A stretch of DNA of 64,000 nucleotides from a virus. The notes beneath the pieces are model-generated. The model was not told the DNA's origin and searched no databases. It was given only the letters and a program-made list of their open reading frames with translations. Made by a program: the position numbers and the translations under genes. The stretch spans positions 1 to 64,000 of IMG/VR virus record IMGVR_UViG_3300025529_000001; one strand, given 5' to 3'. Below, one piece after another: positions 3,447-61,097 of this stretch (the first letter of the stretch is position 1; each line of letters starts with the position of its first letter).

Positions 3447-5071
3447 TTATCTATTTGCTCTTCTGATTATTTTGCATTTGTTTAAGTGTGGCTCAATCTT
3501 ATTTTTGTCCTCAACCCATTTACCATCTATACGTTTCCAACCGTAACGGTTCTCAATGTCTAAAATTTGAATAATGTCGCCTTTATACAGAAGATATTCG
3601 TCATTGATAAAGAATTTCTTCTTATCAACTTTAACCAACACTTCTTCACCTGTTTTAACTTTATATAAAGTAAGCACAGGTTTGTATTTAGTGTTTACAT
3701 CTAATACAAGCACAACATTATCTGGTAATTGAGGATATGTAGAAACTGCATAACCTAAATTATCTTTCTCAAACCTGATTTGTTCATACAACTCAATTTT
3801 GCGTGGTGGATTAGCTCTTACAGCTTTCTCATACTCACGAATATTTTGTAGTCGTACTTGCTTAGTTGCTTCTTTGAGGTCAATTCCGTATTTTAAAGGT
3901 CTCTTAACAATTTTAGTCTTAGTAGTTACTTCTCCTGTTCTTTTGTTAACTTTTTCTTCTACAACCTCTTTATCGGCAAATTCTGGGTACATTACAGTAT
4001 TTGCTTTCTTTTTGTCTGCCATTGTTAGATAAACTTCAAGTAATACTTCTTTTGCACCAAATTCCTTGAAGAAATCAAGTCTGATTAAGATTTCCATTTG
4101 ACGAGTATCTACAGATGTATGTTCGAAAATATCCTTTAATAATCCTGCAAAGTCGTTTCGGTCATATTCGTTGTTTTGTGCCAATTCATACAACTCTTCT
4201 GCAACTTTCTTATTCAAGAATTTAATTGAAGCAATGCCTTTATAGATTGTTTGCTCTTCACGATTAAAGTTATAGAATGACCGAGACTTTCCAAATTCAA
4301 TAGGTTTGATTGTGATTCCACGTTTTTTAGCGTAGTTCATAATCTTACCTGTTTTCTCTTTATCGTCATCTTGTAAGTTCAAGATTACAGTTAGAAACTC
4401 TAGTGGATAATGGTGTCTTAACCATGCACCTATATAACCAATGTAGCTATATGGTGTACTATGGTTAAGAGAGAATCCATAGTTACTAGCATCAGCAATA
4501 ACTTGCAAGAATGATTCAAGAATTTCTTCTGCGTGTTCTTTTGTCTCTCCGTAATTCTCTGTCATATGCTTAATGAAACCATCATGAATTTTAGGTAGAT
4601 ACTGCTCTGTACCTTTCTTCTTAGCAAGACCCCTACGCACAGTATCTGATTCTGCACCTGTATGATTGGCGAAATCGGTCAAGAAATGCATGATTTGTTC
4701 TTGGAAGATTAGGTAGCCTAGAGTATCTTTTAATGATTCATTTAATGCATGGTGTCCATTATCTTTTGGTACACCTTTTGCAAGTTCATGACGATAACTG
4801 TCACCAGATGGTCGAATTGCACCATTAGCCATAGAAAGCAAGTCAATATAGTCAACTTCTCCAACATTTTTTCTAATGTTTTCGAGAGTTTCATCACTGA
4901 ATAGTTGTTTTACATAGGCGTGAGCACTTGCACTCTCAAATTGAAATACTCCGAGCGTAGATTCTCTTAAAGATTTCCAAACTTCCATATCATTAGTATC
5001 AATGTTGTCTGGTGTTAATCTTTCGATACCTGCTAGCTTACAAGTTTCATTGATTAATTCAATATTGTCTA
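3447..5071 (-). CDS. dnaE: DNA polymerase III alpha-like (DnaE-type) polymerase, exon 3 of 3
   Basis: Contains GVFQFES and downstream DnaE-type finger and beta-binding/OB region. The frame stays open upstream of the first Met to 5078. The junction KLDILG-L/DNIELINE restores the DnaE DFLGL motif, with U ending the upstream exon and G ending the intron. Confidence 0.8.
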
Positions 5072-5486
5072 CAATTTGTTACTATTACCTGTTTACTTTA
5101 ATTTATTGTTTTAACGCATTTTCTATTTAAAATTCTTCTTTTGAATATTTTGCTCTACTTAAATTATTCACCTCATCATTTAATGGAAGATATAAATATT
5201 AAATTATTAAGTAAACAGGTAACGGATGAGTCATTTCTGCTCATCTCTCTGCCTTTCGGTCAGAGTTCAGACTATATCATTCGGCATGTTTCACAACATT
5301 CCTAGTGGGGTTCTACTATATCATCGCTGATATAGTAGTCGGATATTCCGATAGTCGTTGAGGGTGGATTCAAGCTATCCTTCCCTGCTGATTGCCCATT
5401 ATTACATCCTTTAGATTATCACACTATGGTACTAAAGGCTTTAGGGGTTTTCAGCATATAACCCACTTTTACTAGGGCTAAACTTT
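5072..5486 (-). mobile_element. ORF-less group I-like intron in the polymerase gene (intron 2)
   Basis: 415-nt ORF-free, locally GC-enriched insert between in-frame DnaE segments. Shares conserved blocks with the nrdE intron at 25236..25593, e.g. gtagtcgttgagggt and ccctgctgattrcccatt. Confidence 0.7.
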
Positions 5487-5922
5487 ACCCTAAAATATCA
5501 AGTTTCACATAATTCTCACCATCTAATTCTCCCATGTTTACAGATGTAACACGATATTTACTTTCTTTCGTGTAAACTGTTGAAACATTAGCATCTAGGT
5601 CGATAGGAGAAACAACAAATCCAGATGGATGACTACCCATTGCAAAGATTACACCATTCAATAAATCAACATATTTAAACAATTCTGGATAACGATTTCT
5701 GTAAGTTTCATCAATATGGTCTTTACCATTAAATTTCTCAACAGCTTTAGCTATTTGGTCAACTTCGCTTAATGGCATATCTAAAGCTCGACCAATCTCA
5801 CGAATCGCCCCTTTTAGTGCAAACGTGTTAAATGTAATAATTTCTGCAAAGTCAATACCTTCAATACTTGCTAAGAAATCAATAACTTCTTGTCTGCGAC
5901 TAGGTGGAAAGTCAACATCTAT
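5487..5922 (-). CDS. dnaE: DNA polymerase III alpha-like polymerase, exon 2 of 3
   Basis: Translation IDVDFPPSRRQEVIDFLASIEG...ITFNTFALKGAIREIGRAL...VKLDILG matches the DnaE palm region (PDxDxDF ... ITFGT ... DFLGL). Confidence 0.8.
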
Positions 5923-6795
5923 CCTTTTTACCCTCTCTTTCGAGATACTTTAACACTTCTCTAGGGAAGTGGGAGTAGACTATATCTTCACCCCTTAACA
6001 CCTAATTGTGTCAGTTGGGTGTCCTGCTCTTCGAGTGGTAGCCTATCTTCCACCCTACATAATAGTCGTTACACCTTCTCTAATCTAAAAACATCCATTT
6101 ATATCCGCCACAAGTATGTTGCCTTCCATTCAAACATGCTGATATATTTTTATATCCGACATTCAAAATTTTATCAGCATCTCTAGCAGAATTGAAATAT
6201 AACTCTTCTCCTGTTTCAATATTTATAGCTTTGATTTTCTTAGCAACATTATTCAATCCCTCTTTTACAGCATGATGATTATTGTACTTATATGTACACC
6301 ATTCCAAATTGTCTAAGTTATTATTCAATTTATTACCATCTTTATGATTAATGATAGGATAGTTGTTGGGATTTGGTATAAAATGTATTGCTAAAAGTCT
6401 ATGAAGTAAGTAATTTTTACTCTTACCATTTTTTGATAATCTAACTGTATAATATCCGTTATGATTAATAGACTTTTTAAGCAACCTTTCTTTATATGTA
6501 TAATATGTGTGACCGTTCCACAGTAATCTTTCTAGCGATTTTACATTTCCTAGATTAGATATTTGATAAATACCCTCATGTCCTTTTATATCTTTCCATA
6601 TTTCATTCATAAAAATCACCTTAACACATTTATTATGTCGGATTAAGTTTTTAGATTAGAGCTTGGCTCGGTATTGTCCACCGACCTTTACGGTTTGGAG
6701 TTTTACCGATAGCACCTTTTATAAGGCACACCGCTAGGCAATAGCGTTCACAGGATTTTCACTAATACATTACTGTATTAGGCGACATTTAACAT
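5923..6795 (-). mobile_element. Group I-like intron with HNH homing endonuclease ORF (polymerase intron 1)
   Basis: 873-nt insert splitting ...RVSLPD | IDVDF... (DnaE motif PDxDxDF). The exon ends in U and the intron ends in G. Flanks of the HEG ORF are structured and GC-richer. Confidence 0.7.
6080..6610 (-). CDS. HNH homing endonuclease (NUMOD4 / I-HmuI-like), intron-encoded
   Basis: MNEIWKDIKGHEGIYQISNLGNVKS (NUMOD4-like), HRLLAIHFIPNP...INHKDGNKLNNNLDNLEW (HNH), and a C-terminal NUMOD1/IENR-like GGYKW. RBS AAGGTGA lies 5 nt before the ATG at 6610. Confidence 0.8.
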   Translation of the reverse strand: MNEIWKDIKGHEGIYQISNLGNVKSLERLLWNGHTYYTYKERLLKKSINHNGYYTVRLSKNGKSKNYLLHRLLAIHFIPNPNNYPIINHKDGNKLNNNLDNLEWCTYKYNNHHAVKEGLNNVAKKIKAINIETGEELYFNSARDADKILNVGYKNISACLNGRQHTCGGYKWMFLD

Positions 6796-8052
6796 ATCGG
6801 GTAGACTGACTCGGTCTGGGTTTAAAAATCTAAAGAAATTTAATTTATGCTTAATCGAATCCATTTCTGTAATACCTAAGATGTAAGCTATTAAACTACC
6901 GTTTACAGACCCACGACCATAACCTTGATAGATACCATTCTCATGACACCAATCAATAATGTGTTTTTGCAAAAGCATGTAATCAACTGCGTTCAGTTTA
7001 ATATATGTGTCAAATTCCTCTTTTATTCTATCAAAATATTGTTTTTTCTTTTTAGAAGGGAATTTATCGATACCACGCTTTTTAACACCTTCATTAATTT
7101 TTTCCTTAAATACTTCAATTGGATTGTCATATAGCTTTGGATATTTAGGTGTTTTATCTAATTTAAATTCCTCTACCATATCAGCCATAACATTTGTATT
7201 ATGGATGGCTTCTAAGTAGATGTGCCTTGGTAAAACACCTTGCTCTTCAAACATTCTTACAAGCTCTTCATATGACTTAAATGTTAAATCAAACGAATCT
7301 TCATCTCCATATGTGGCATCTTTAGCTTTCAAAAATAATTTACGTGCTTGTGCGTGTTCACGATTCAATGCGTGAGTATCTGTTCCTGCAATTAAAGGAA
7401 TATTTAATTCTTTTGACAATCTTAGCAACATTTGATTAAATTTTTTTTGTTGTGGATGGTTGTGATACTGTACTTCAAAAAACATTCTATGTTTGTTGTC
7501 GCCCATCCAATTCAATAAATCATCAAATTCTCTTAAAGCTTCTCTATCTTTAATACCGATTTCACTATACGCTTTGTTATACAATCTCCATAATGGCGAA
7601 GCGATACAGGCAGAAGTCATTAAAATGTTGTCCGATGTGCTTTTTAACTCATCAAAAGTTATTCGTGGGTTGTAATAAAAGTGACCATCTTCACGATTAA
7701 ATGATTTTGAAGTTAAGTCATTTAATTCTAACACACCATCATAGTTTTTCGCAATAAGCATATAGTGAAAATTATCACGAATCTTAATCGGATTACCTTC
7801 GTCATCCTTATCAATTTTTTGCGTTAAGTAAATTTCGTTTGCGTGTATGTACTTCATTCCTGCATTTTCAATAGCTTTCTTTTTCTCAATCCAATTCATC
7901 ACACTACCATGTTCTGAAATCGCCATAGACTGCATTCCAAGTTCTTTAGCTCTTTCAATGTAGTCGGTGTACTTTGTGATAGAATCTGCACCTGTTCCTG
8001 CTGTCAAGTTACTAATATCACTATGTATGTGATAAATTGTGTAGTTATCCAT
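6796..8052 (-). CDS. dnaE: DNA polymerase III alpha-like polymerase, exon 1 of 3 (PHP domain)
   Basis: N-terminal PHP motif YHIHSDISNL...AISEHGS...GTDTHA, ending ...FLNPDRVSLPD as in the DnaE RFLNPERVSMPD motif. Confidence 0.8.
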
Positions 8053-15485: not shown

Positions 15486-15514
15486 ATTATATCATTATTC
15501 ATTATGTTTGTCAA
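15486..15514 (-). promoter_or_regulatory. SigA-type promoter for the ligase gene
   Basis: Minus strand reads TTGACA-17 nt-TATAAT with TGa. It overlaps the 3' end of the permease gene. Confidence 0.6.
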
Positions 15515-22083: not shown

Positions 22084-22112
22084 ATTATATCATTATTTTT
22101 TATGTTTGTCAA
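22084..22112 (-). promoter_or_regulatory. SigA-type promoter
   Basis: Minus strand reads TTGACA-17 nt-TATAAT with TGa. Confidence 0.6.
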
Positions 22113-29430: not shown

Positions 29431-30864
29431 TTAACGGATAGGACACACACCTTGTTCACATGATTCCATATTTTCAATATCTGCTTCTGTTTCAGCAAAC
29501 TCATATTTTCTTAGTAATTTTGGGTCAAATGGCTTCATTTTCGATTTTAATTCTTCGTATTGCTTTTTAGTAATGCTCTCATATGGGGCTAATGTATATG
29601 TTCCTCCATCATGAGCCAAAAATGATACACCAACAAAATTATTCCAATTATCCCATACGATTTGCTCTGCTTCTTCCCATTCATGTTCCTTAACTGTAAT
29701 AGTATTTGATGTATTATGTTCTGTATAATATTTTTGGAAAGAGAAATAATTGTCAAATTGTTCTTTTACTGTAATATCATCTTTTGTCCGTTTCGCCCCA
29801 GTCGCAACAGGGAAATCAATAACGATAGTTTTAGCTTTTTCAATCACTTCTGGCTTAGCTAAATCTTTTGTATGCTTATATCCTTCCGTACCTACTTCTG
29901 CATGAATAGTCCACCCTAATTCTTTAGCTACTTGCACTAAAGGGTCAGTAGCATTTATTCTAATTCTACGAATATAATAAGGGGCATGTGACCAATGTAG
30001 TCCACTTGAAACTCCTCCTGCTACTTGACTTAGCGTTCCTTCTGGCTTTACTGCAGTAACAAGTAAAGGAGTATTAACACGAAGATATTTACTGTATCTA
30101 TCAGCTTCTTCTCTTGCTGTTTTGTGCAAGAGTTCTTTCAGCTCATTTTCTTGTTCTTCTGTATATCCTAACATATCCATAGCATCTTTCCAACCAGTTA
30201 AACTACAGCCCAATAATCTATCACGTTTTTGTATTTTATCCCATTCAGGTAATTCTAATTTAGCTAAAGTCATTCGCAATCCAATTCTTGCGGATAGCTT
30301 TTGAGCTTCTAACAACCCATTTAAATCCAATGTGTTATCTGGTTTAACAAATGCTTTAACATTTACAGTTGTTAGGTTGCACACATTTTTGCTAAATAAA
30401 ATTATTTCTACACAAGGATTTAAACCAATTTTTTCCATTGTTTTCTCTAACCATTTTTTGTTAGGATTTTTAATTCCCAATGCTTTAGCAATACGTATTG
30501 CACCTTCTTCTAAGTTGACAAAGGCAGGTTCGCCTTCCCCTTGTAATAAGGCAAATTGTAGAGCGTGTTTTTCTCTCGAAGGTTTCTCTGTAAATGCAAC
30601 CGAATTGTTTGACATTCTTCGGTGCTCAATACCTTTTCTTCCTAAGTTAAAAGGCTGGTCTCCATTAATATCTTTGCCGTAATACTTAACACTTAATTCA
30701 TCAAACCATTTAGGAATTACAACTCCATTTTTAATTAAAAGCTCTCTTACTTTTTCATGATGTTCAAAATGTTTTTCTTTCCAAAATCCATTGATGCCAT
30801 ATTTTGCTAATAATACTTCATAATCATCGGCATCGAAAAGGAAGATTTCTGCTGTTCTTCGTAC
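29431..30864 (-). CDS. nrdJ: Class II (adenosylcobalamin-dependent) ribonucleotide reductase, exon 2 of 2
   Basis: VRRTAEIFLFD..., NPCVEIILFSKNVCNLTTVNV (active-site Cys/Glu context), and a C-terminal redox pair CEQGVCPIR as in monomeric RTPR-type enzymes. Confidence 0.7.
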   Translation of the reverse strand, partial: VRRTAEIFLFDADDYEVLLAKYGINGFWKEKHFEHHEKVRELLIKNGVVIPKWFDELSVKYYGKDINGDQPFNLGRKGIEHRRMSNNSVAFTEKPSREKHALQFALLQGEGEPAFVNLEEGAIRIAKALGIKNPNKKWLEKTMEKIGLNPCVEIILFSKNVCNLTTVNVKAFVKPDNTLDLNGLLEAQKLSARIGLRMTLAKLELPEWDKIQKRDRLLGCSLTGWKDAMDMLGYTEEQENELKELLHKTAREEADRYSKYLRVNTPLLVTAVKPEGTLSQVAGGVSSGLHWSHAPYYIRRIRINATDPLVQVAKELGWTIHAEVGTEGYKHTKDLAKPEVIEKAKTIVIDFPVATGAKRTKDDITVKEQFDNYFSFQKYYTEHNTSNTITVKEHEWEEAEQIVWDNWNNFVGVSFLAHDGGTYTLAPYESITKKQYEELKSKMKPFDPKLLRKYEFAETEADIENMESCEQGVCPIR

Positions 30865-42230: not shown

Positions 42231-42301
42231 ATTGTTTCACCTCTGTATAAAAGAAAATTTTTATTAAAATTTATTAATGAATAAGATTATTAACTGTCTT
42301 T

Positions 42302-43175
42302 TTATATACTAAACACATTTAACCATTCTTCGTTAAAATCTTTTCTCTTACCAGAGATTCCACCTTTACCCCTTTTACTAACAATTAAATGTGCGTTATC
42401 CGTCATTTTATACCCTTCTGAAACATAAATCTTACTTTTTTTCTTATGCAATTTAATAATTGATAATAATTTATGTATATAAGAATTTACATCAAAATCA
42501 AAACCATAACCTGCTGCATTTTTATATGGTGGGTCAATGTACACTATACTATTATTATCAAAGTTACTATGTCGTTTATATCACCATAATATCCAAACAA
42601 TCCTTCCATTTTTTCCAAAATAATCTCTACTCTTTTAAATAATGTTTCTGGCATCGGCATCATAGGATTTACAGGGCTTTTCCTATTGGATGTTTCTGTT
42701 GGCAACCAATAATTTCTAAAACTTATATTCTGCCATTTATTATTTTCAACCCATATAGCTTTTGAGCCAAATGCACATGCTTGAAGAATTAAGAATTTAT
42801 AAACCATATTATCAAACAATCCATCGTTAGCAGGTTGTTTCGCCATTTCTTCTGCATATAATTTAATTTTTGTAATATCTTTAGGAATACTGTTTATGTA
42901 AAACTTAAATACATCTATGCTAAAAGTTCCATCACCGATTTTCTGCCAAAATAATCCCCAAGGCGATTTATCTACCATGATTATATTGCTAGGATTTACA
43001 CCTCTATTAACCAATTCAATAGAAATTGCTCCACTACCACAACATAAATCATAAAATTTTGTTTCTTCATTTATTCCATTTTCTTTGAAGAAAATGTCGA
43101 CAATATCTTTTGCGATACGCTGTTTACCGCCTTGATATGCACATGGTATTGTTAATTTATTCTTTTTTTAGCCAT
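42302..43175 (-). pseudogene. Alpha-class (Dam-like) DNA adenine methyltransferase interrupted by two frameshifts
   Basis: ATG at 43175 then an A7 run. The 0 frame stops after 7 codons (MAKKRIN*). The -1 frame continues KKNKLTIPCAYQGGKQRIAKDIV...FYDLCCGSGAISIEL (motif I). A second frame change near 42575..42590 leads to ...NNSIVYIDPPYKNAAGYGF (motif IV). Confidence 0.65.
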
Positions 43176-43226
43176 AATACACCTCGCTACACAATTATTC
43201 ATTGTATTCGATAAAAATTCATTTTA

Positions 43227-43742: not shown

Positions 43743-44456
43743 TTATGTATTTTTTACTTGTTGTCCAATTCTTTCACATGCTTTTATGTAATATTCTTTA
43801 TCTAACTCGAAAGCTATAAAATTACGATTTAATTCTTTACATGCGTGTGCCAAACTTCCACTACCACTAAATGGCTCTAGTAAAATGTCGCCTTCATTAC
43901 TATGTATCTTAACTAAATCTTTAATTAATTCTAATGGTTTTTCCGTAGGATGTATTCTTTCTTTGCTATGTACTACAGGATATTCAAAAATTGCATTTTC
44001 ATATGTATCACGCTGTCTATTAAACGTCCAACCATTACCCTTTGTTGCCCATAGTGCAAATTCACAAGAATTAACATATAGTCTATCTCTATTTCTTGGC
44101 ATGGGGTTAGATTTCTTCCATATAATCATTTGCTTGATTAAATATCCTTTTTCTTCTAGTTTATCTTTTATATAACTCATATTTTTCCAACTGTTAAAAA
44201 TTACAATGTTTCCACCTTTTTTAAGCAATTTATCAGCATAATCAATCCATGCAGTAAGGTCAAAATCTTTATCCCATTCTCCGAAGTCAATACCTTCTCT
44301 GCCCATTGTCTTAAAGTTATTATCTTGACTTACATTAAAAGGAGGGTCGGTAATAATATTATCTACGAAACTTCCATATTTATTAAATAATCTCTCCATG
44401 CCCTCAATGCAATCCATATTATAAATTTTATTCAATACTTCTTGTATATTACTCAT
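43743..44456 (-). CDS. Beta-class DNA methyltransferase (DPPF)
   Basis: Start set at MSNIQEVLNKIYNMDCIEG (RBS GAAAGGA). Motif IV NIITDPPFNV and motif I LEPFSGSGSLAHACKELNRNFIAFE. Confidence 0.8.
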   Translation of the reverse strand: MSNIQEVLNKIYNMDCIEGMERLFNKYGSFVDNIITDPPFNVSQDNNFKTMGREGIDFGEWDKDFDLTAWIDYADKLLKKGGNIVIFNSWKNMSYIKDKLEEKGYLIKQMIIWKKSNPMPRNRDRLYVNSCEFALWATKGNGWTFNRQRDTYENAIFEYPVVHSKERIHPTEKPLELIKDLVKIHSNEGDILLEPFSGSGSLAHACKELNRNFIAFELDKEYYIKACERIGQQVKNT

Positions 44457-44475
44457 TGTATCAATTCCTTTCACA

Positions 44476-44552
44476 CAATTCTTACGTAAGGAAGCCACTG
44501 GCTTTAGCCACGTGGAGGAATTGCGTATTTTAAACACGCTACGTAAGAATTG
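44476..44552 (-). repeat. Nested inverted repeats at the 3' boundary of the iscB module (candidate element end / terminator)
   Basis: Outer perfect 13-bp inverted repeat caattcttacgta (44476..44488) / tacgtaagaattg (44540..44552), which spans the iscB stop codon. Inner hairpin CCACTGGCT-tt-AGCCAcGTGG (44495..44515). Confidence 0.6.
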
Positions 44553-45819
44553 CTACCTCCTTTCTATAACTATACCCATCAAAGTGTTGTACAACTGAAA
44601 AATATTTATGATTTACACCTTGTACAACTCTTTGACATTCCTTGTCTTTAATATCAAAATTACCTGATTTTCTACATGCAACTTCTCCGTACCAAATGCC
44701 TTTATATTTTCCTTTTGGTATTTCAGCTTTAACCATATCTCCTGTTTGAAAACCAAAGAAATATTTTTGTCTTGCTAAATATCCCCTCGGAAAGCCGTAT
44801 TTATCTAAATTTGTTCTACAATGACTGCCTCGACCTTTTGCCTTTATGTATAAAACATTTTTAGTTTTAAAATATAATTTATCTGGTGTGCTTTGCCCTA
44901 CACAACAAGCATCAAAATAATGTTCTTTTGGCAATCCTAATTTGATTCTATTCATTTTTGTTAGAGCACCTGTACCACATTCTACTTCTAAACCACTATT
45001 GTTAAGCAAATTATAAACTTTCCATCTTGTAGAATTTACTACAGAAGAATCTTTTAATGTTTGTTTAACTTGTTTTTGCATATCAGGATAACCAAATTCT
45101 TCTGCTGTCATATTACCTTTCTTCTGGTTACACTCATGGCAAGCTAAACAGAGATTATCAATTCTGTTTGTTCCACCCCTTGATTTTGGTATTATATGTT
45201 CTACTTCTAATGGGATGTTTTCTTTTCCACAATAACAACATTTTCTACCAAACTTTTCAAGTAAATATTCTCTAATTTCATACCCTTGAAGTGTACCTTG
45301 TTGGTACTCAATGCCACTTATTTCAGGATTTTGCATTAATTGAGTATCAAACTTAACATTTTCATAAGATATGTGAGTTAATGGAATTAATTTTTGTAAC
45401 CTATTAACCCATGTTTTTATATTATTAACCCTACTTTCTAAACTTGGTGGTATCCATCCTTCTTTTCTTTTTCTATTTAAAAATCTTGGTTTTCTATATC
45501 TTGTTCTTCTATTTCTTCTGTTGCGTCTAAACATACGTCTATCATCAAGTTTCTTTTTAATATCTGTTCTGTGGTCTATTTGAGCTAACCATATTACATT
45601 GTTATTTTGTAGTATAGCTAATCCTGTATGCTTACTACCGTAATCAATTTTTAATCTATATTTTTTCTTGTTTTTAGTGTCTTCTACTGATTTTTTTAAT
45701 ATTATCGTAAATGGGTATTTTTTAAATATTGTTGCTTTGCCTTGTTTAAGCAGTTTTCTTGCAACTGCTTCGTGGCAAGGTGATAATGGTTTTTTATTTG
45801 CATCTAATACAAATACCAT
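44539..45819 (-). CDS. iscB: IscB-type RNA-guided nuclease (RuvC with inserted HNH, PLMP N-terminus)
   Basis: Domain order read from the translation is as follows. PLMP-like MVFVLDANKKPLSPCHEAVARKLL. RuvC-I KIDYGSKHTGLAIL. Arg-rich bridge helix RRMFRRNRRNRRTRYRKPRF. RuvC-II ISYENVKFD. HNH CCYCG..LEVEHIIPKSRGG..NLCLACHECNQKKG. RuvC-III KEHYFDACCVG. A C-terminal beta-rich domain follows. RBS AAAGGAGAAA upstream. Confidence 0.8.
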   Translation of the reverse strand: MVFVLDANKKPLSPCHEAVARKLLKQGKATIFKKYPFTIILKKSVEDTKNKKKYRLKIDYGSKHTGLAILQNNNVIWLAQIDHRTDIKKKLDDRRMFRRNRRNRRTRYRKPRFLNRKRKEGWIPPSLESRVNNIKTWVNRLQKLIPLTHISYENVKFDTQLMQNPEISGIEYQQGTLQGYEIREYLLEKFGRKCCYCGKENIPLEVEHIIPKSRGGTNRIDNLCLACHECNQKKGNMTAEEFGYPDMQKQVKQTLKDSSVVNSTRWKVYNLLNNSGLEVECGTGALTKMNRIKLGLPKEHYFDACCVGQSTPDKLYFKTKNVLYIKAKGRGSHCRTNLDKYGFPRGYLARQKYFFGFQTGDMVKAEIPKGKYKGIWYGEVACRKSGNFDIKDKECQRVVQGVNHKYFSVVQHFDGYSYRKEVAILT

Positions 45820-46057
45820 AGGAATTTCTCCTTTCTCTGCTTACGCAGGTAATGTCCTTCTCGACAAAGTTATCTATGTTTGTATGTACAACACACTGGC
45901 TTAACCCACTACACCTGTTTAATGTTGTACGACAGGGTTTAAGACTGAAGGAGCATCCTAAAGTGTCATAACATAGATAACGTAGGTTCTGTTTCAAACC
46001 TTAGTCTGGTCAACATAAGGCTATCAAGCCCACGACTTTAGTCGTTGGGTAGTTGAC
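45820..46057 (-). ncRNA. Candidate omega RNA (IscB guide/scaffold RNA)
   Basis: ORF-free and visibly GC-richer than its surroundings. Lies between the promoter at 46064..46092 and the iscB RBS. Contains the hairpin CCCAaCGAC/GTCGTGGG (46029..46049), a perfect 12-nt long-range complement (45869..45880 with 45970..45981), and AGACTAAGG/CCTTcAGTCT pairing. Exact ends and the guide segment were not determined. Confidence 0.55.
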
Positions 46058-46063
46058 TATTAT

Positions 46064-46092
46064 ATTATATCATTATTTACTATGTTTGTCAA
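46064..46092 (-). promoter_or_regulatory. SigA-type phage promoter driving the omega-RNA/iscB/methyltransferase unit
   Basis: Minus strand reads TTGACA-aacatagtaaataatga(17)-TATAAT with TGa. The spacer closely resembles those of other promoters in this window. Confidence 0.6.
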
Positions 46093-61068: not shown

Positions 61069-61097
61069 ATTATATCATTATTTATTACTCTTGTCAA
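61069..61097 (-). promoter_or_regulatory. SigA-type promoter with about 280-nt leader
   Basis: Minus strand reads TTGACA-17 nt-TATAAT with TGa. Hairpin GGTGTG/CACACC (61042..61065) starts 3 nt after the -10 box. Confidence 0.6.

Follow-up and report, generated by a model that had tools for sequence, protein, structure and literature searches.

An IscB element with a HEARO-family omega-RNA at a methyltransferase promoter of a large phage, and its unoccupied alleles

The window, by which we mean the whole stretch of 64,000 nucleotides that was analysed, encodes a topoisomerase II, a DNA polymerase, RecJ, a DnaB-type helicase, DNA and RNA ligases, and a ribonucleotide reductase, which match phage protein families. 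This gene content marks the window as the replication module of a large phage, and its sequence is 100% identical to a 153-kb contig (JGI) and a 125-kb contig (ENA). Nearly all of its larger ORFs are co-directional (of the 48 with 150 aa or more, 47 share one strand), and among them are a gene for a 426-aa protein, preceded by a structured leader, and a DNA methyltransferase gene (Table 1).

The 426-aa protein matches the NCBIfam equivalog NF040563 ("RNA-guided endonuclease IscB", guided_IscB) over profile positions 1-314 with 456.6 bits, compared to a cut-off of 175, and its nearest solved structures are all IscBs. Together with the Pfam matches, this agrees with the IscB layout of an N-terminal PLMP region, an arginine-rich bridge helix, a split RuvC, and an inserted HNH. 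In a 12-sequence IscB alignment, the motifs with the RuvC and HNH catalytic residues (D59, E153, H208, H300, and D303, with catalytic roles assigned from published IscB work; PMC10055086, PMC9640706) are conserved, as are the CxxC pairs. By these comparisons, the ORF is a bona fide IscB, with its reading frame and catalytic motifs intact. An in-frame stop was seen in the IscB sequence of another locus, L010.

For the leader of this gene (minus strand, 46057-45820), an earlier note had proposed an omega-RNA scaffold, and the coordinates and sequences given there proved accurate. The proposal itself is borne out by a match to the Rfam family HEARO that adjoins the IscB gene, spans the full length of the model (positions 1-211 of 211), and clearly exceeds the gathering score of 83 (Table 1); no other Rfam family was matched anywhere in the 64-kb window. 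HEARO is the omega-RNA of IscB (PMC13565253), and RNAs of this type act as guide RNAs in characterised IscB systems (PMC10055086, PMC9640706). The 3' end of the scaffold is separated by 29 nt from the iscB ATG on the same strand, and HEARO was found in the same position 5' of iscB in all 22 related loci scanned (21 viral loci and 1 Logan locus, L034), with the scaffold of the window scoring as well as those of its relatives. The leader is thus a genuine omega-RNA of the HEARO family, belonging to a small IscB mobile element. The segment had also been described as clearly GC-richer than the flanking DNA, as lacking an ORF, and as ending at the iscB Shine-Dalgarno sequence. While its G+C content is indeed higher (0.37-0.385, compared to about 0.28-0.33 in the flanks), the contrast is modest, and while it is nearly devoid of ORFs, a mechanically called 67-aa TTG ORF (45794-45997) overlaps it; its end is as described, with GGAG at 45831-45828 and the ATG at 45819. 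Both the omega-RNA and the IscB are members of known families, and the RNA itself adds no new biology.

Table 1. Positions of the IscB element, its structural parts, and the adjoining phage features within the window.
Feature	Position	Strand	Details
Phage promoter TTGACA-17-(TG)n-TATAAT	46064..46092	-	12/12 consensus match; predicted start about 46057
Guide-encoding flank	46058..46073	-	5'-ATGATATAATATAATA-3'; outside the element; holds the promoter -10 box
Omega-RNA scaffold	45849..46057	-	Rfam HEARO RF02033, 155 bits, E = 5.4e-34
Guide adaptor hairpin	46009..46057	-	outer stem GUCAAC/GUUGAC around the hairpin 46049-46029 and GGCU-UGAU-AGCC (46030-46019)
Nexus stem	46001..46006	-	GACUAA pairs with UUUGUC (45868-45863); the Rfam pseudoknot
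Central stem, 5' strand	45970..45981	-	partner 45880-45869; second pairing of the earlier note
Nexus pseudoknot hairpin	45932..45965	-	loop UCCUUC (45952-45947) pairs with GAAGGA (45860-45855)
3' strands	45855..45880	-	central stem 45880-45869, nexus stem 45868-45863, nexus pseudoknot 45860-45855
Terminal hairpins	45820..45848	-	CUGC-GUAA-GCAG (45848-45837); AGGA-GAAAU-UCCU (45832-45820)
iscB, 426 aa	44539..45819	-	Pfam RRXRR 5e-75 and HNH; NCBIfam equivalog
iscB-distal end	44475..44538	-	palindrome CCACgTGGC-TAAA-GCCAGTGG (44515-44495); last bases ...AAGAATTGT
Putative TAM GTGA	44471..44474	-	in the flank; present in the unoccupied alleles L120 and L154
DNA methyltransferase gene	43743..44456	-	Pfam N6_N4_Mtase; promoter and leader split by the element

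The fold of the scaffold was examined both on the single sequence and across relatives. The single sequence folds with a predicted -70.1 kcal/mol (z = -3.4), and none of 200 shuffled sequences folded as well. When viral contigs were searched with the protein, 23 loci were retrieved whose IscBs are 54-95% identical to that of the window, and 17 distinct omega-RNAs from related loci were aligned as a covariation set. On these 17 sequences, RNAalifold predicted 68 pairs, 43 of which had changed on both sides with pairing kept. For the 4 main helices (hairpin, central stem, nexus stem, and nexus pseudoknot), 88% of the alignment cells were paired (72-94% for the individual helices), compared to 73.5% in shuffled alignments, none of which scored as high in 500 trials; sliding the 3' partners of these helices by 1-3 columns lowered the pairing to about 40%.

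This alignment supported two of the three pairings that the earlier note had read from the single sequence. Compensatory changes across the homologous loci were found for the hairpin CCCAaCGAC-TAAA-GTCGTGGG (46049-46029), with 90% of cells paired and double changes in 6 of its 8 pairs over the 17 loci, as well as for the perfect long-range helix between GUUAUCUAUGUU (45981-45970) and AACAUAGAUAAC (45880-45869), with 92% of cells paired and 7 of 12 pairs double-changed. The third pairing, of AGACUAAGG (46007-45999) with CCUUcAGUCU (45951-45942), is complementary in the window sequence but not conserved, and was rejected: 62.1% of its cells were paired compared to 62.0% in shuffled alignments, 276 of 500 shuffles scored as high, and covariation was essentially absent. 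Its two strands belong instead to the nexus stem and the nexus pseudoknot, both of which covary.

With helices named after the OgeuIscB structure (Kato 2022, PMC9640706), the known omega-RNA architecture is recovered here, since a guide adaptor hairpin, a nexus stem, a central stem, and a pseudoknot are all present and covarying. The second pair of the nexus stem is AU in 6, GC in 6, and CG in 5 of the 17 sequences, which makes it compensatory in 11 of 17, and in the nexus pseudoknot (UCCUUC/GAAGGA), 94% of cells are paired, with double changes in 5 of 6 pairs. In OgeuIscB, mutation of the nexus pseudoknot stem abolishes activity, and the pseudoknots contact IscB in the solved complexes (PMC9640706). 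Both terminal hairpins beyond the scaffold were likewise predicted on the alignment with compensatory changes, and the second of them pairs the iscB Shine-Dalgarno sequence.

The extent of the element was delimited by comparison with related insertions. In blastn of the window against 14 other loci, similarity was confined to about 46057-44470 (72-95% identity), and the flanks were without homology. On the 5' side, the insertions show no relationship over the 90 nt ahead of the scaffold, and their similarity starts exactly at GTCAAC (46057). On the far side, similarity continues for about 64 nt beyond the iscB stop and halts ahead of an invariant GTGA; this distal end is conserved to 44475 in all close loci and divergent beyond, and its boundary is set by an unoccupied allele, with a 2-nt ambiguity (GT). 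The element therefore spans 1,583 bp (46057-44475, minus strand) and consists of the scaffold, iscB as its only gene, and a structured far end. In one Logan assembly, the sequence breaks at the scaffold boundary, an observation that fits a multi-copy element and is no proof of an empty site.

A palindrome is present at either end (46049-46029 and 44515-44495), in each case built from two 4-bp stem segments that are separated by a bulge and closed by a TAAA loop. The two palindromes covary between clades, with the distal one reading CCCCgTGCC-TAAA-GGCAGGGG in L010-L013. Since subterminal palindromes at both ends are a hallmark of IS200/IS605-type elements, the hairpin at 46049-46029 doubles as an RNA stem and a transposon-end DNA hairpin. 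Further features of this type (ISC) are present, namely discrete ends, the absence of a target duplication, and insertion beside a fixed short motif. A TnpA gene was not found: there is no Y1_Tnp Pfam match within 8 kb on either side of the element, and a crude motif screen detected no HUH/Y1-like ORF in the window or in 53 loci. Without TnpA, the element would be non-autonomous at best, as has been reported for most IscB elements (PMC9755519). That the segment belongs to a non-autonomous IS200/IS605-type IscB element in a large phage is, as part of the overall explanation developed below, very probable in our judgement.

In IscB transposons, the guide is encoded beyond the transposon boundary, 5' of the scaffold, so that transcription has to begin outside for an omega-RNA to be made; the TAM lies against the opposite element end, and the empty site consists of guide plus TAM (Meers 2023, PMC10055086). 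In solved structures, too, the guide immediately precedes the guide adaptor hairpin (PMC9640706). Because homology between loci begins at GTCAAC (46057), the guide here corresponds to the 16 nt of adjoining flank directly 5' of the scaffold, AUGAUAUAAUAUAAUA (46073-46058). The earlier note had left the position of the guide unclear and considered that it might lie elsewhere; this suggestion did not hold, as all 16 positions of the flank are matched in an empty allele (L120), where GTGA comes next. With 15 of its 16 positions being A or U, the guide would form a weak heteroduplex with its target.

GTGA directly follows the element at all 13 anchored sites and also follows the bacterial copies in Anoxybacillus and relatives, whose IscBs are 75-77% identical to that of the window. 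We also considered GTGA as a part of the element end and rejected this, as GTGA is present in both empty alleles. This conservation, together with the two empty sites, points to GTGA as the TAM. At the occupied site, the scaffold begins with GTCA, so that GTCA instead of GTGA adjoins the guide-matching DNA. Single-base TAM changes abolish cleavage in the characterised system (Meers et al., PMC10055086), and by analogy, the one-base difference between GTCA and GTGA would protect the occupied locus. When the window was searched for guide plus TAM with up to 3 mismatches, the only match was the occupied site itself. That the guide might also target the 26 sibling promoters with which it has the -10 half in common was considered and rejected, since none of them combines 3 or fewer mismatches with GTGA.

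The empty allele was retrieved with a gapped pattern that is able to match unoccupied sites only, which returned one metagenome contig, L120. Its junction reads ...TTGACAagcataataaataatgaTATAATATAATA/GTGA/AAGGAATTGATACA-ATG, the ATG being that of the methyltransferase gene, and promoter and gene are contiguous in it (TTGACA-17-TATAAT-ATAATA/GTGA/AAGGAATTGATACA-ATG). On the methyltransferase side, L120 and the window share 99.4% identity over 1,264 nt; on the upstream side, identity is 91.8% over 171 nt, beyond which the two diverge, and on this comparison, the two genomes are mosaic relatives rather than simple plus/minus variants. A second pair was obtained from the empty junction predicted for L006/L007 (flank, GTGA, flank), which was located in L154; the flanks there are 99.8% and 96% identical. 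Occupied and unoccupied alleles therefore coexist in related genomes, and the target is reconstituted in the unoccupied alleles only (L120 and L154). The empty junctions predicted for L003, L001, and L011 were not found in the viral contigs. Similarly, megablast of the locus against deposited phages and a search of viral contigs with the upstream 111-aa protein returned no match, and exact-protein look-ups with both flanking genes returned only the source contigs and fragments of these. The best methyltransferase relatives in viral contigs (49-64% identical) were discarded as a source of empty sites, being too divergent upstream.

The flank that supplies the guide also carries a promoter, which is likewise present in the empty allele and is therefore the methyltransferase gene's own. 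It is one of a family: 27 minus-strand matches to the consensus with at most 1 mismatch were counted in the window, compared to 1.9 expected by chance, and these 27 siblings share an extended consensus, which identifies them as a phage promoter family. In 24 of them, a purine occupies the 7th position downstream of the -10 box, which is likely the transcription start site on this model. At the present locus, this position is G46057, nucleotide 1 of the scaffold, and it is taken by the G of GTGA in the empty allele. With the -10 box ending at 46064 and the start predicted at about 46057, the distance of about 8 nt to the first hairpin that had been noted earlier is reproduced. The element thus sits at the predicted +1, with the -10 box inside the 16-nt guide, so that RNA driven by this promoter should be guide-less.

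IscB guides need transcription from outside the element, and the genes upstream of IscB elements are biased to the same orientation (Meers 2023, PMC10055086). In the window, no minus-strand terminator was predicted between the next upstream promoter (48842-48814) and the element, and given this, together with the co-directional ORFs, a supply of guide-bearing RNA by read-through from upstream co-directional promoters is plausible. If the adjacent promoter is dominant, the guide-less scaffold may outcompete the guided RNA, and this copy may home poorly.

Sequence comparison gives the identity of RNA and protein, the limits of the element, a TAM, and both occupied and empty alleles. On this basis, a likely mechanism can be proposed in which transcription start, read-through, cleavage, and homing would be connected as follows. 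The element inserted between ...ATAATA and GTGA, at the predicted +1 of the methyltransferase promoter. IscB with an omega-RNA carrying the guide AUGAUAUAAUAUAAUA would find element-free genomes, in which these 16 nt run directly into the TAM GTGA, and would spare its own locus because the 16 nt there precede GTCA. The cut would be repaired from an occupied genome, by which the element would be copied in, and the outcome would be homing between co-infecting phages or re-insertion after excision. Meanwhile, the adjacent promoter would produce a guide-less transcript of omega-RNA, iscB, and methyltransferase from scaffold nucleotide 1, and guide-bearing RNA would be supplied by upstream read-through. 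An IscB element with an omega-RNA, a guide taken from the flank, insertion at +1 of the methyltransferase promoter, and homing is in our view the best explanation overall, and we hold it with considerable confidence. More generally, IscB/omega-RNA systems might act as homing elements guided by RNA, or as gene drives, when large phages co-infect a cell. They would prefer sites just upstream of genes, where an insertion splits a ribosome-binding site or, in the present case, the start site of a promoter, and the present copy would have disarmed itself, as the start of a strong promoter now falls on scaffold nucleotide 1 and most of its RNA would lack a guide. We put this forward tentatively, leaning somewhat against it; in a 2026 review, transposon homing between co-infecting phages is treated as a theoretical possibility only (PMC13565253).

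The most serious challenge to a working guide at this site comes from the promoter itself. With the -10 box inside the guide and the predicted start at scaffold nucleotide 1, essentially all omega-RNA might be guide-less, in which case IscB would be non-targeting and the element a passenger that hands transcription on to the methyltransferase gene. The promoter belongs to a strong and highly conserved family, and a guide-less scaffold would presumably compete with read-through RNA for IscB. The frame and catalytic motifs of IscB are intact and the scaffold scores like its relatives, which speaks against such an inactive state, although intactness is weak evidence, as the insertion is possibly too recent for decay to show. 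Moreover, the route for upstream read-through is free of predicted terminators, and the natural empty allele offers an exact 16/16 target with TAM. On balance, we consider a stranded passenger unlikely, and would say the same of the corresponding view of the RNA, by which it would be an omega-RNA by descent with no working guide RNA at this site. The promoter's awkward position is also the sole point in favor of a guide located elsewhere, within the scaffold or at the 3' end of it. Against this, conservation of the scaffold extends to its very first base, its alignment has no variable segment, and the 5' flank differs from one insertion to the next. Moreover, the flank matches the empty allele beside a conserved TAM at two independent sites, and in the solved structures the guide adjoins the guide adaptor hairpin on its 5' side. 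Such a location is therefore scarcely credible.

Two further explanations would remove either the guide function or the selfish character of the element. The structure could act only in cis, as an mRNA leader that controls the translation or stability of iscB and gives rise to no trans-acting RNA; the scaffold is contiguous with the iscB mRNA, and its 3'-terminal hairpin AGGA...UCCU, with some compensatory change, sequesters the Shine-Dalgarno sequence. However, the whole HEARO model is matched, including the pseudoknots that contact IscB, and the same RNA is a guide RNA in characterised systems. We regard a leader acting in cis alone as very improbable, while a cis role of the last hairpin is compatible with the main explanation without replacing it. 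Alternatively, the phage could have domesticated the nuclease and use IscB and its omega-RNA against host or rival DNA, or to regulate the methyltransferase promoter, the element being no longer selfish. IscB homologues do occur in 71 deposited phage genomes, and the guide does match a promoter. Yet the element is present or absent between near-identical genomes, it occurs in unrelated contexts at 86-95% identity with sharp ends, and its guide matches its own empty site only. This presence/absence pattern, the unrelated contexts, and the own-site guide are the behavior of a mobile element and not of a fixed phage gene, which makes domestication just as improbable as a leader acting purely in cis.

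The mobile IscB element of our preferred explanation can be compared with several characterised systems. The omega-RNA of OgeuIscB (PDB 7UTN, 7XHT; PMC9640706) gives the same full-length model match, with the same order of helices directly 5' of iscB, whereas the RNA described here has an extra small stem-loop (46001-45984) ahead of the central stem. The proteins are distantly similar (E = 8.5e-27) and differ in length (426 aa here compared to 496 aa), and the TAM differs as well, being a putative GTGA here and NWRRNA for OgeuIscB as cited in PMC12660989. A closer likeness exists to the IscB element ISGst5 of Geobacillus stearothermophilus (PMC10055086), which is also a non-autonomous IS605-type element with the guide in the flank beyond the scaffold end, the TAM abutting the opposite end, and a donor joint or empty site that consists of guide plus TAM. 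Read on the other strand, GTGA is TTCAC, which resembles TTCAT, the experimentally determined TAM of the ISGst5 IscB, GstIscB (Meers 2023, PMC10055086), and the closest bacterial relatives of the IscB described here are from Anoxybacillus, a genus related to Geobacillus. In contrast to ISGst5, which is chromosomal, the present element is phage-borne and has no TnpA that we could identify; furthermore, its insertion at a promoter start would compromise the usual supply of guide by outside transcription.

The presence of IscB and HEARO in phages is already known. HEARO is among the non-coding RNAs listed for Silviavirus phages (PMC13346280), and genes annotated as HNH endonucleases in Silviavirus, Ralstonia, Microcoleus, Nodularia, and other phages resemble the present gene in encoding an IscB-family protein in a phage genome. 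By tblastn, IscB homologues were found in 71 deposited phage records, and among the 25 matches listed, the 22 annotated records all read "HNH endonuclease" or "hypothetical protein". The IscB-like proteins of cultured phages, which carry only these annotations, are at most 50% identical to the IscB of the window. Free-standing homing endonuclease genes of another kind, Seg and Mob of T4-like phages, are expected to spread by cutting the empty allele during co-infection. Like these (reviewed in PMC13565253), the element described here is a selfish nuclease gene between conserved phage genes that is present or absent among relatives, and it would be expected to spread in the same way. It differs in that target recognition would be achieved by a 16-nt RNA guide and a 4-nt motif rather than by the protein, in its sharp transposon ends, and in a self-protection that would result from the insertion parting the target from its TAM.

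In a limited literature search, we found no account of IscB elements in phages, including those of the cultured phages above, for which ends, guides, TAMs, and natural empty alleles had been defined. The natural occupied and empty phage alleles yield the guide, the putative TAM GTGA, and the exact target without experiment, and such allele pairs represent a ready-made system for testing RNA-guided nuclease homing between phages, which so far is a theoretical proposal. In practical terms, the locus offers a compact IscB of 426 aa with a short candidate TAM, along with many natural pairs of guide and target, and many of the HNH endonuclease annotations in phages are unrecognised IscBs. Furthermore, the locus exposes a weakness built into IscB systems, whose guide has to be transcribed from outside: an element that lands on a promoter start may silence guidance while raising expression.

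IscB elements appear to insert just 5′ of genes, splitting the Shine-Dalgarno sequence. Insertion sites were compared at the junctions of L001-L013 and L020, which are viral-contig loci with relatives of the window's IscB, and at most sites with a callable downstream gene, a co-oriented start codon was found 8-13 nt past GTGA (the TAM). The empty sites reconstructed from these loci often resemble ribosome-binding sites, as in ...GGAG/GTGA... and ...TAG/GTGAAAATATG (slash, junction).

The flanks of several elements hold further element sequence. The "guide" of L013, i.e., the flank directly 5′ of the scaffold start GTCAAC, corresponds to the far end of another element copy (...GCTTCCTTGCGTAAGTTTCGTAG/GTCAAC), a junction that points to elements arranged in tandem. 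Furthermore, the scaffold start is duplicated in L012, a remnant of the scaffold 5′ end lies just upstream in L023, and a second, inverted scaffold 5′ end was found at the end of the L002 contig, where three tRNA genes are located just 5′ of the element. L016 shares its upstream flank with L017, L018, and L022, and 23 additional nucleotides (AGGATACTGGAAAAATTTGATTA) precede GTCAAC in L016; therefore, its guide differs from that of the other three loci at seemingly the same neighborhood. Two diverged IscB/omega-RNA elements, L001 and L019, reside approximately 8 kb apart on the 185-kb viral contig IMGVR_UViG_3300034684_000299, with IscBs of 92% and 54% protein identity to that of the window.

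In the Logan data for sample SRR5251418, an assembly break coincides exactly with the boundary of the window's element on the scaffold side; it falls between the end of contig L119 and the start of contig L034, which overlap by 27 nt (window 46028-46054). This is the pattern expected of a multi-copy or polymorphic element. A stretch of approximately 940 bp is also absent from L120, the metagenome contig with the unoccupied allele, and forms a second polymorphism of the presence/absence type at a distance of 1.2 kb from the IscB element.

The element's closest relative (97% protein and 95% nucleotide identity) was identified on L121 (JAAYVN010000116.1), a short contig of 2,241 bp assigned to an Ignavibacteriales MAG. 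A mis-binned fragment of a phage or mobile element is the probable explanation, rather than a true link to the host. L024, a 138-kb viral contig with a tRNA gene array, matches the query in the HNH domain only, and L011 contains a tmRNA-like match.

Positions of features in the window and in related loci
Feature	Sequence	Position	Strand	Remark
Second polymorphism	window	42268-43210		absent from L120
Two ORFs in this stretch	window	42302-42544 and 42544-43014		a DPPY motif, like a split methyltransferase
Promoter site	window	15486-15514	minus	matches family consensus
Promoter site	window	22084-22112	minus	matches family consensus
Promoter site	window	61069-61097	minus	matches family consensus
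Ribonucleotide reductase ORF	window	29431-30615		C-terminal half of profile only
Far end as "guide"	L013	5700-5760
Duplicated scaffold start	L012	5748-5759		12 nt
Scaffold remnant	L023	4310-4363		~35 nt
Additional nucleotides	L016	2332-2354
Inverted scaffold 5′ end	L002	7740-7795
tRNA array	L024	5001-12081		at least 17 genes
tmRNA-like match	L011	6289-6377		77.7 bits

Elsewhere in the window, the DNA polymerase is made up of two ORFs (3447-4988 and 6778-8052, minus strand) approximately 1.8 kb apart (gap, 4989-6777). Both match the same PHROG profile, each in a different region (positions 632-1068 and 42-444), and the split may reflect an intron, intein, or homing-endonuclease insertion. Likewise, only part of the profile is covered by the ribonucleotide reductase ORF. 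Finally, sigma-70-type promoters that are nearly identical to one another and share the extended consensus TTGACAAACATAA..AATAATGATATAAT form a family of 27 sites across window positions 974-62399, all on the gene strand (minus); 28 matches were counted, compared to 1.9 expected by chance. These are probably the early promoters of the phage, used by the host RNA polymerase.
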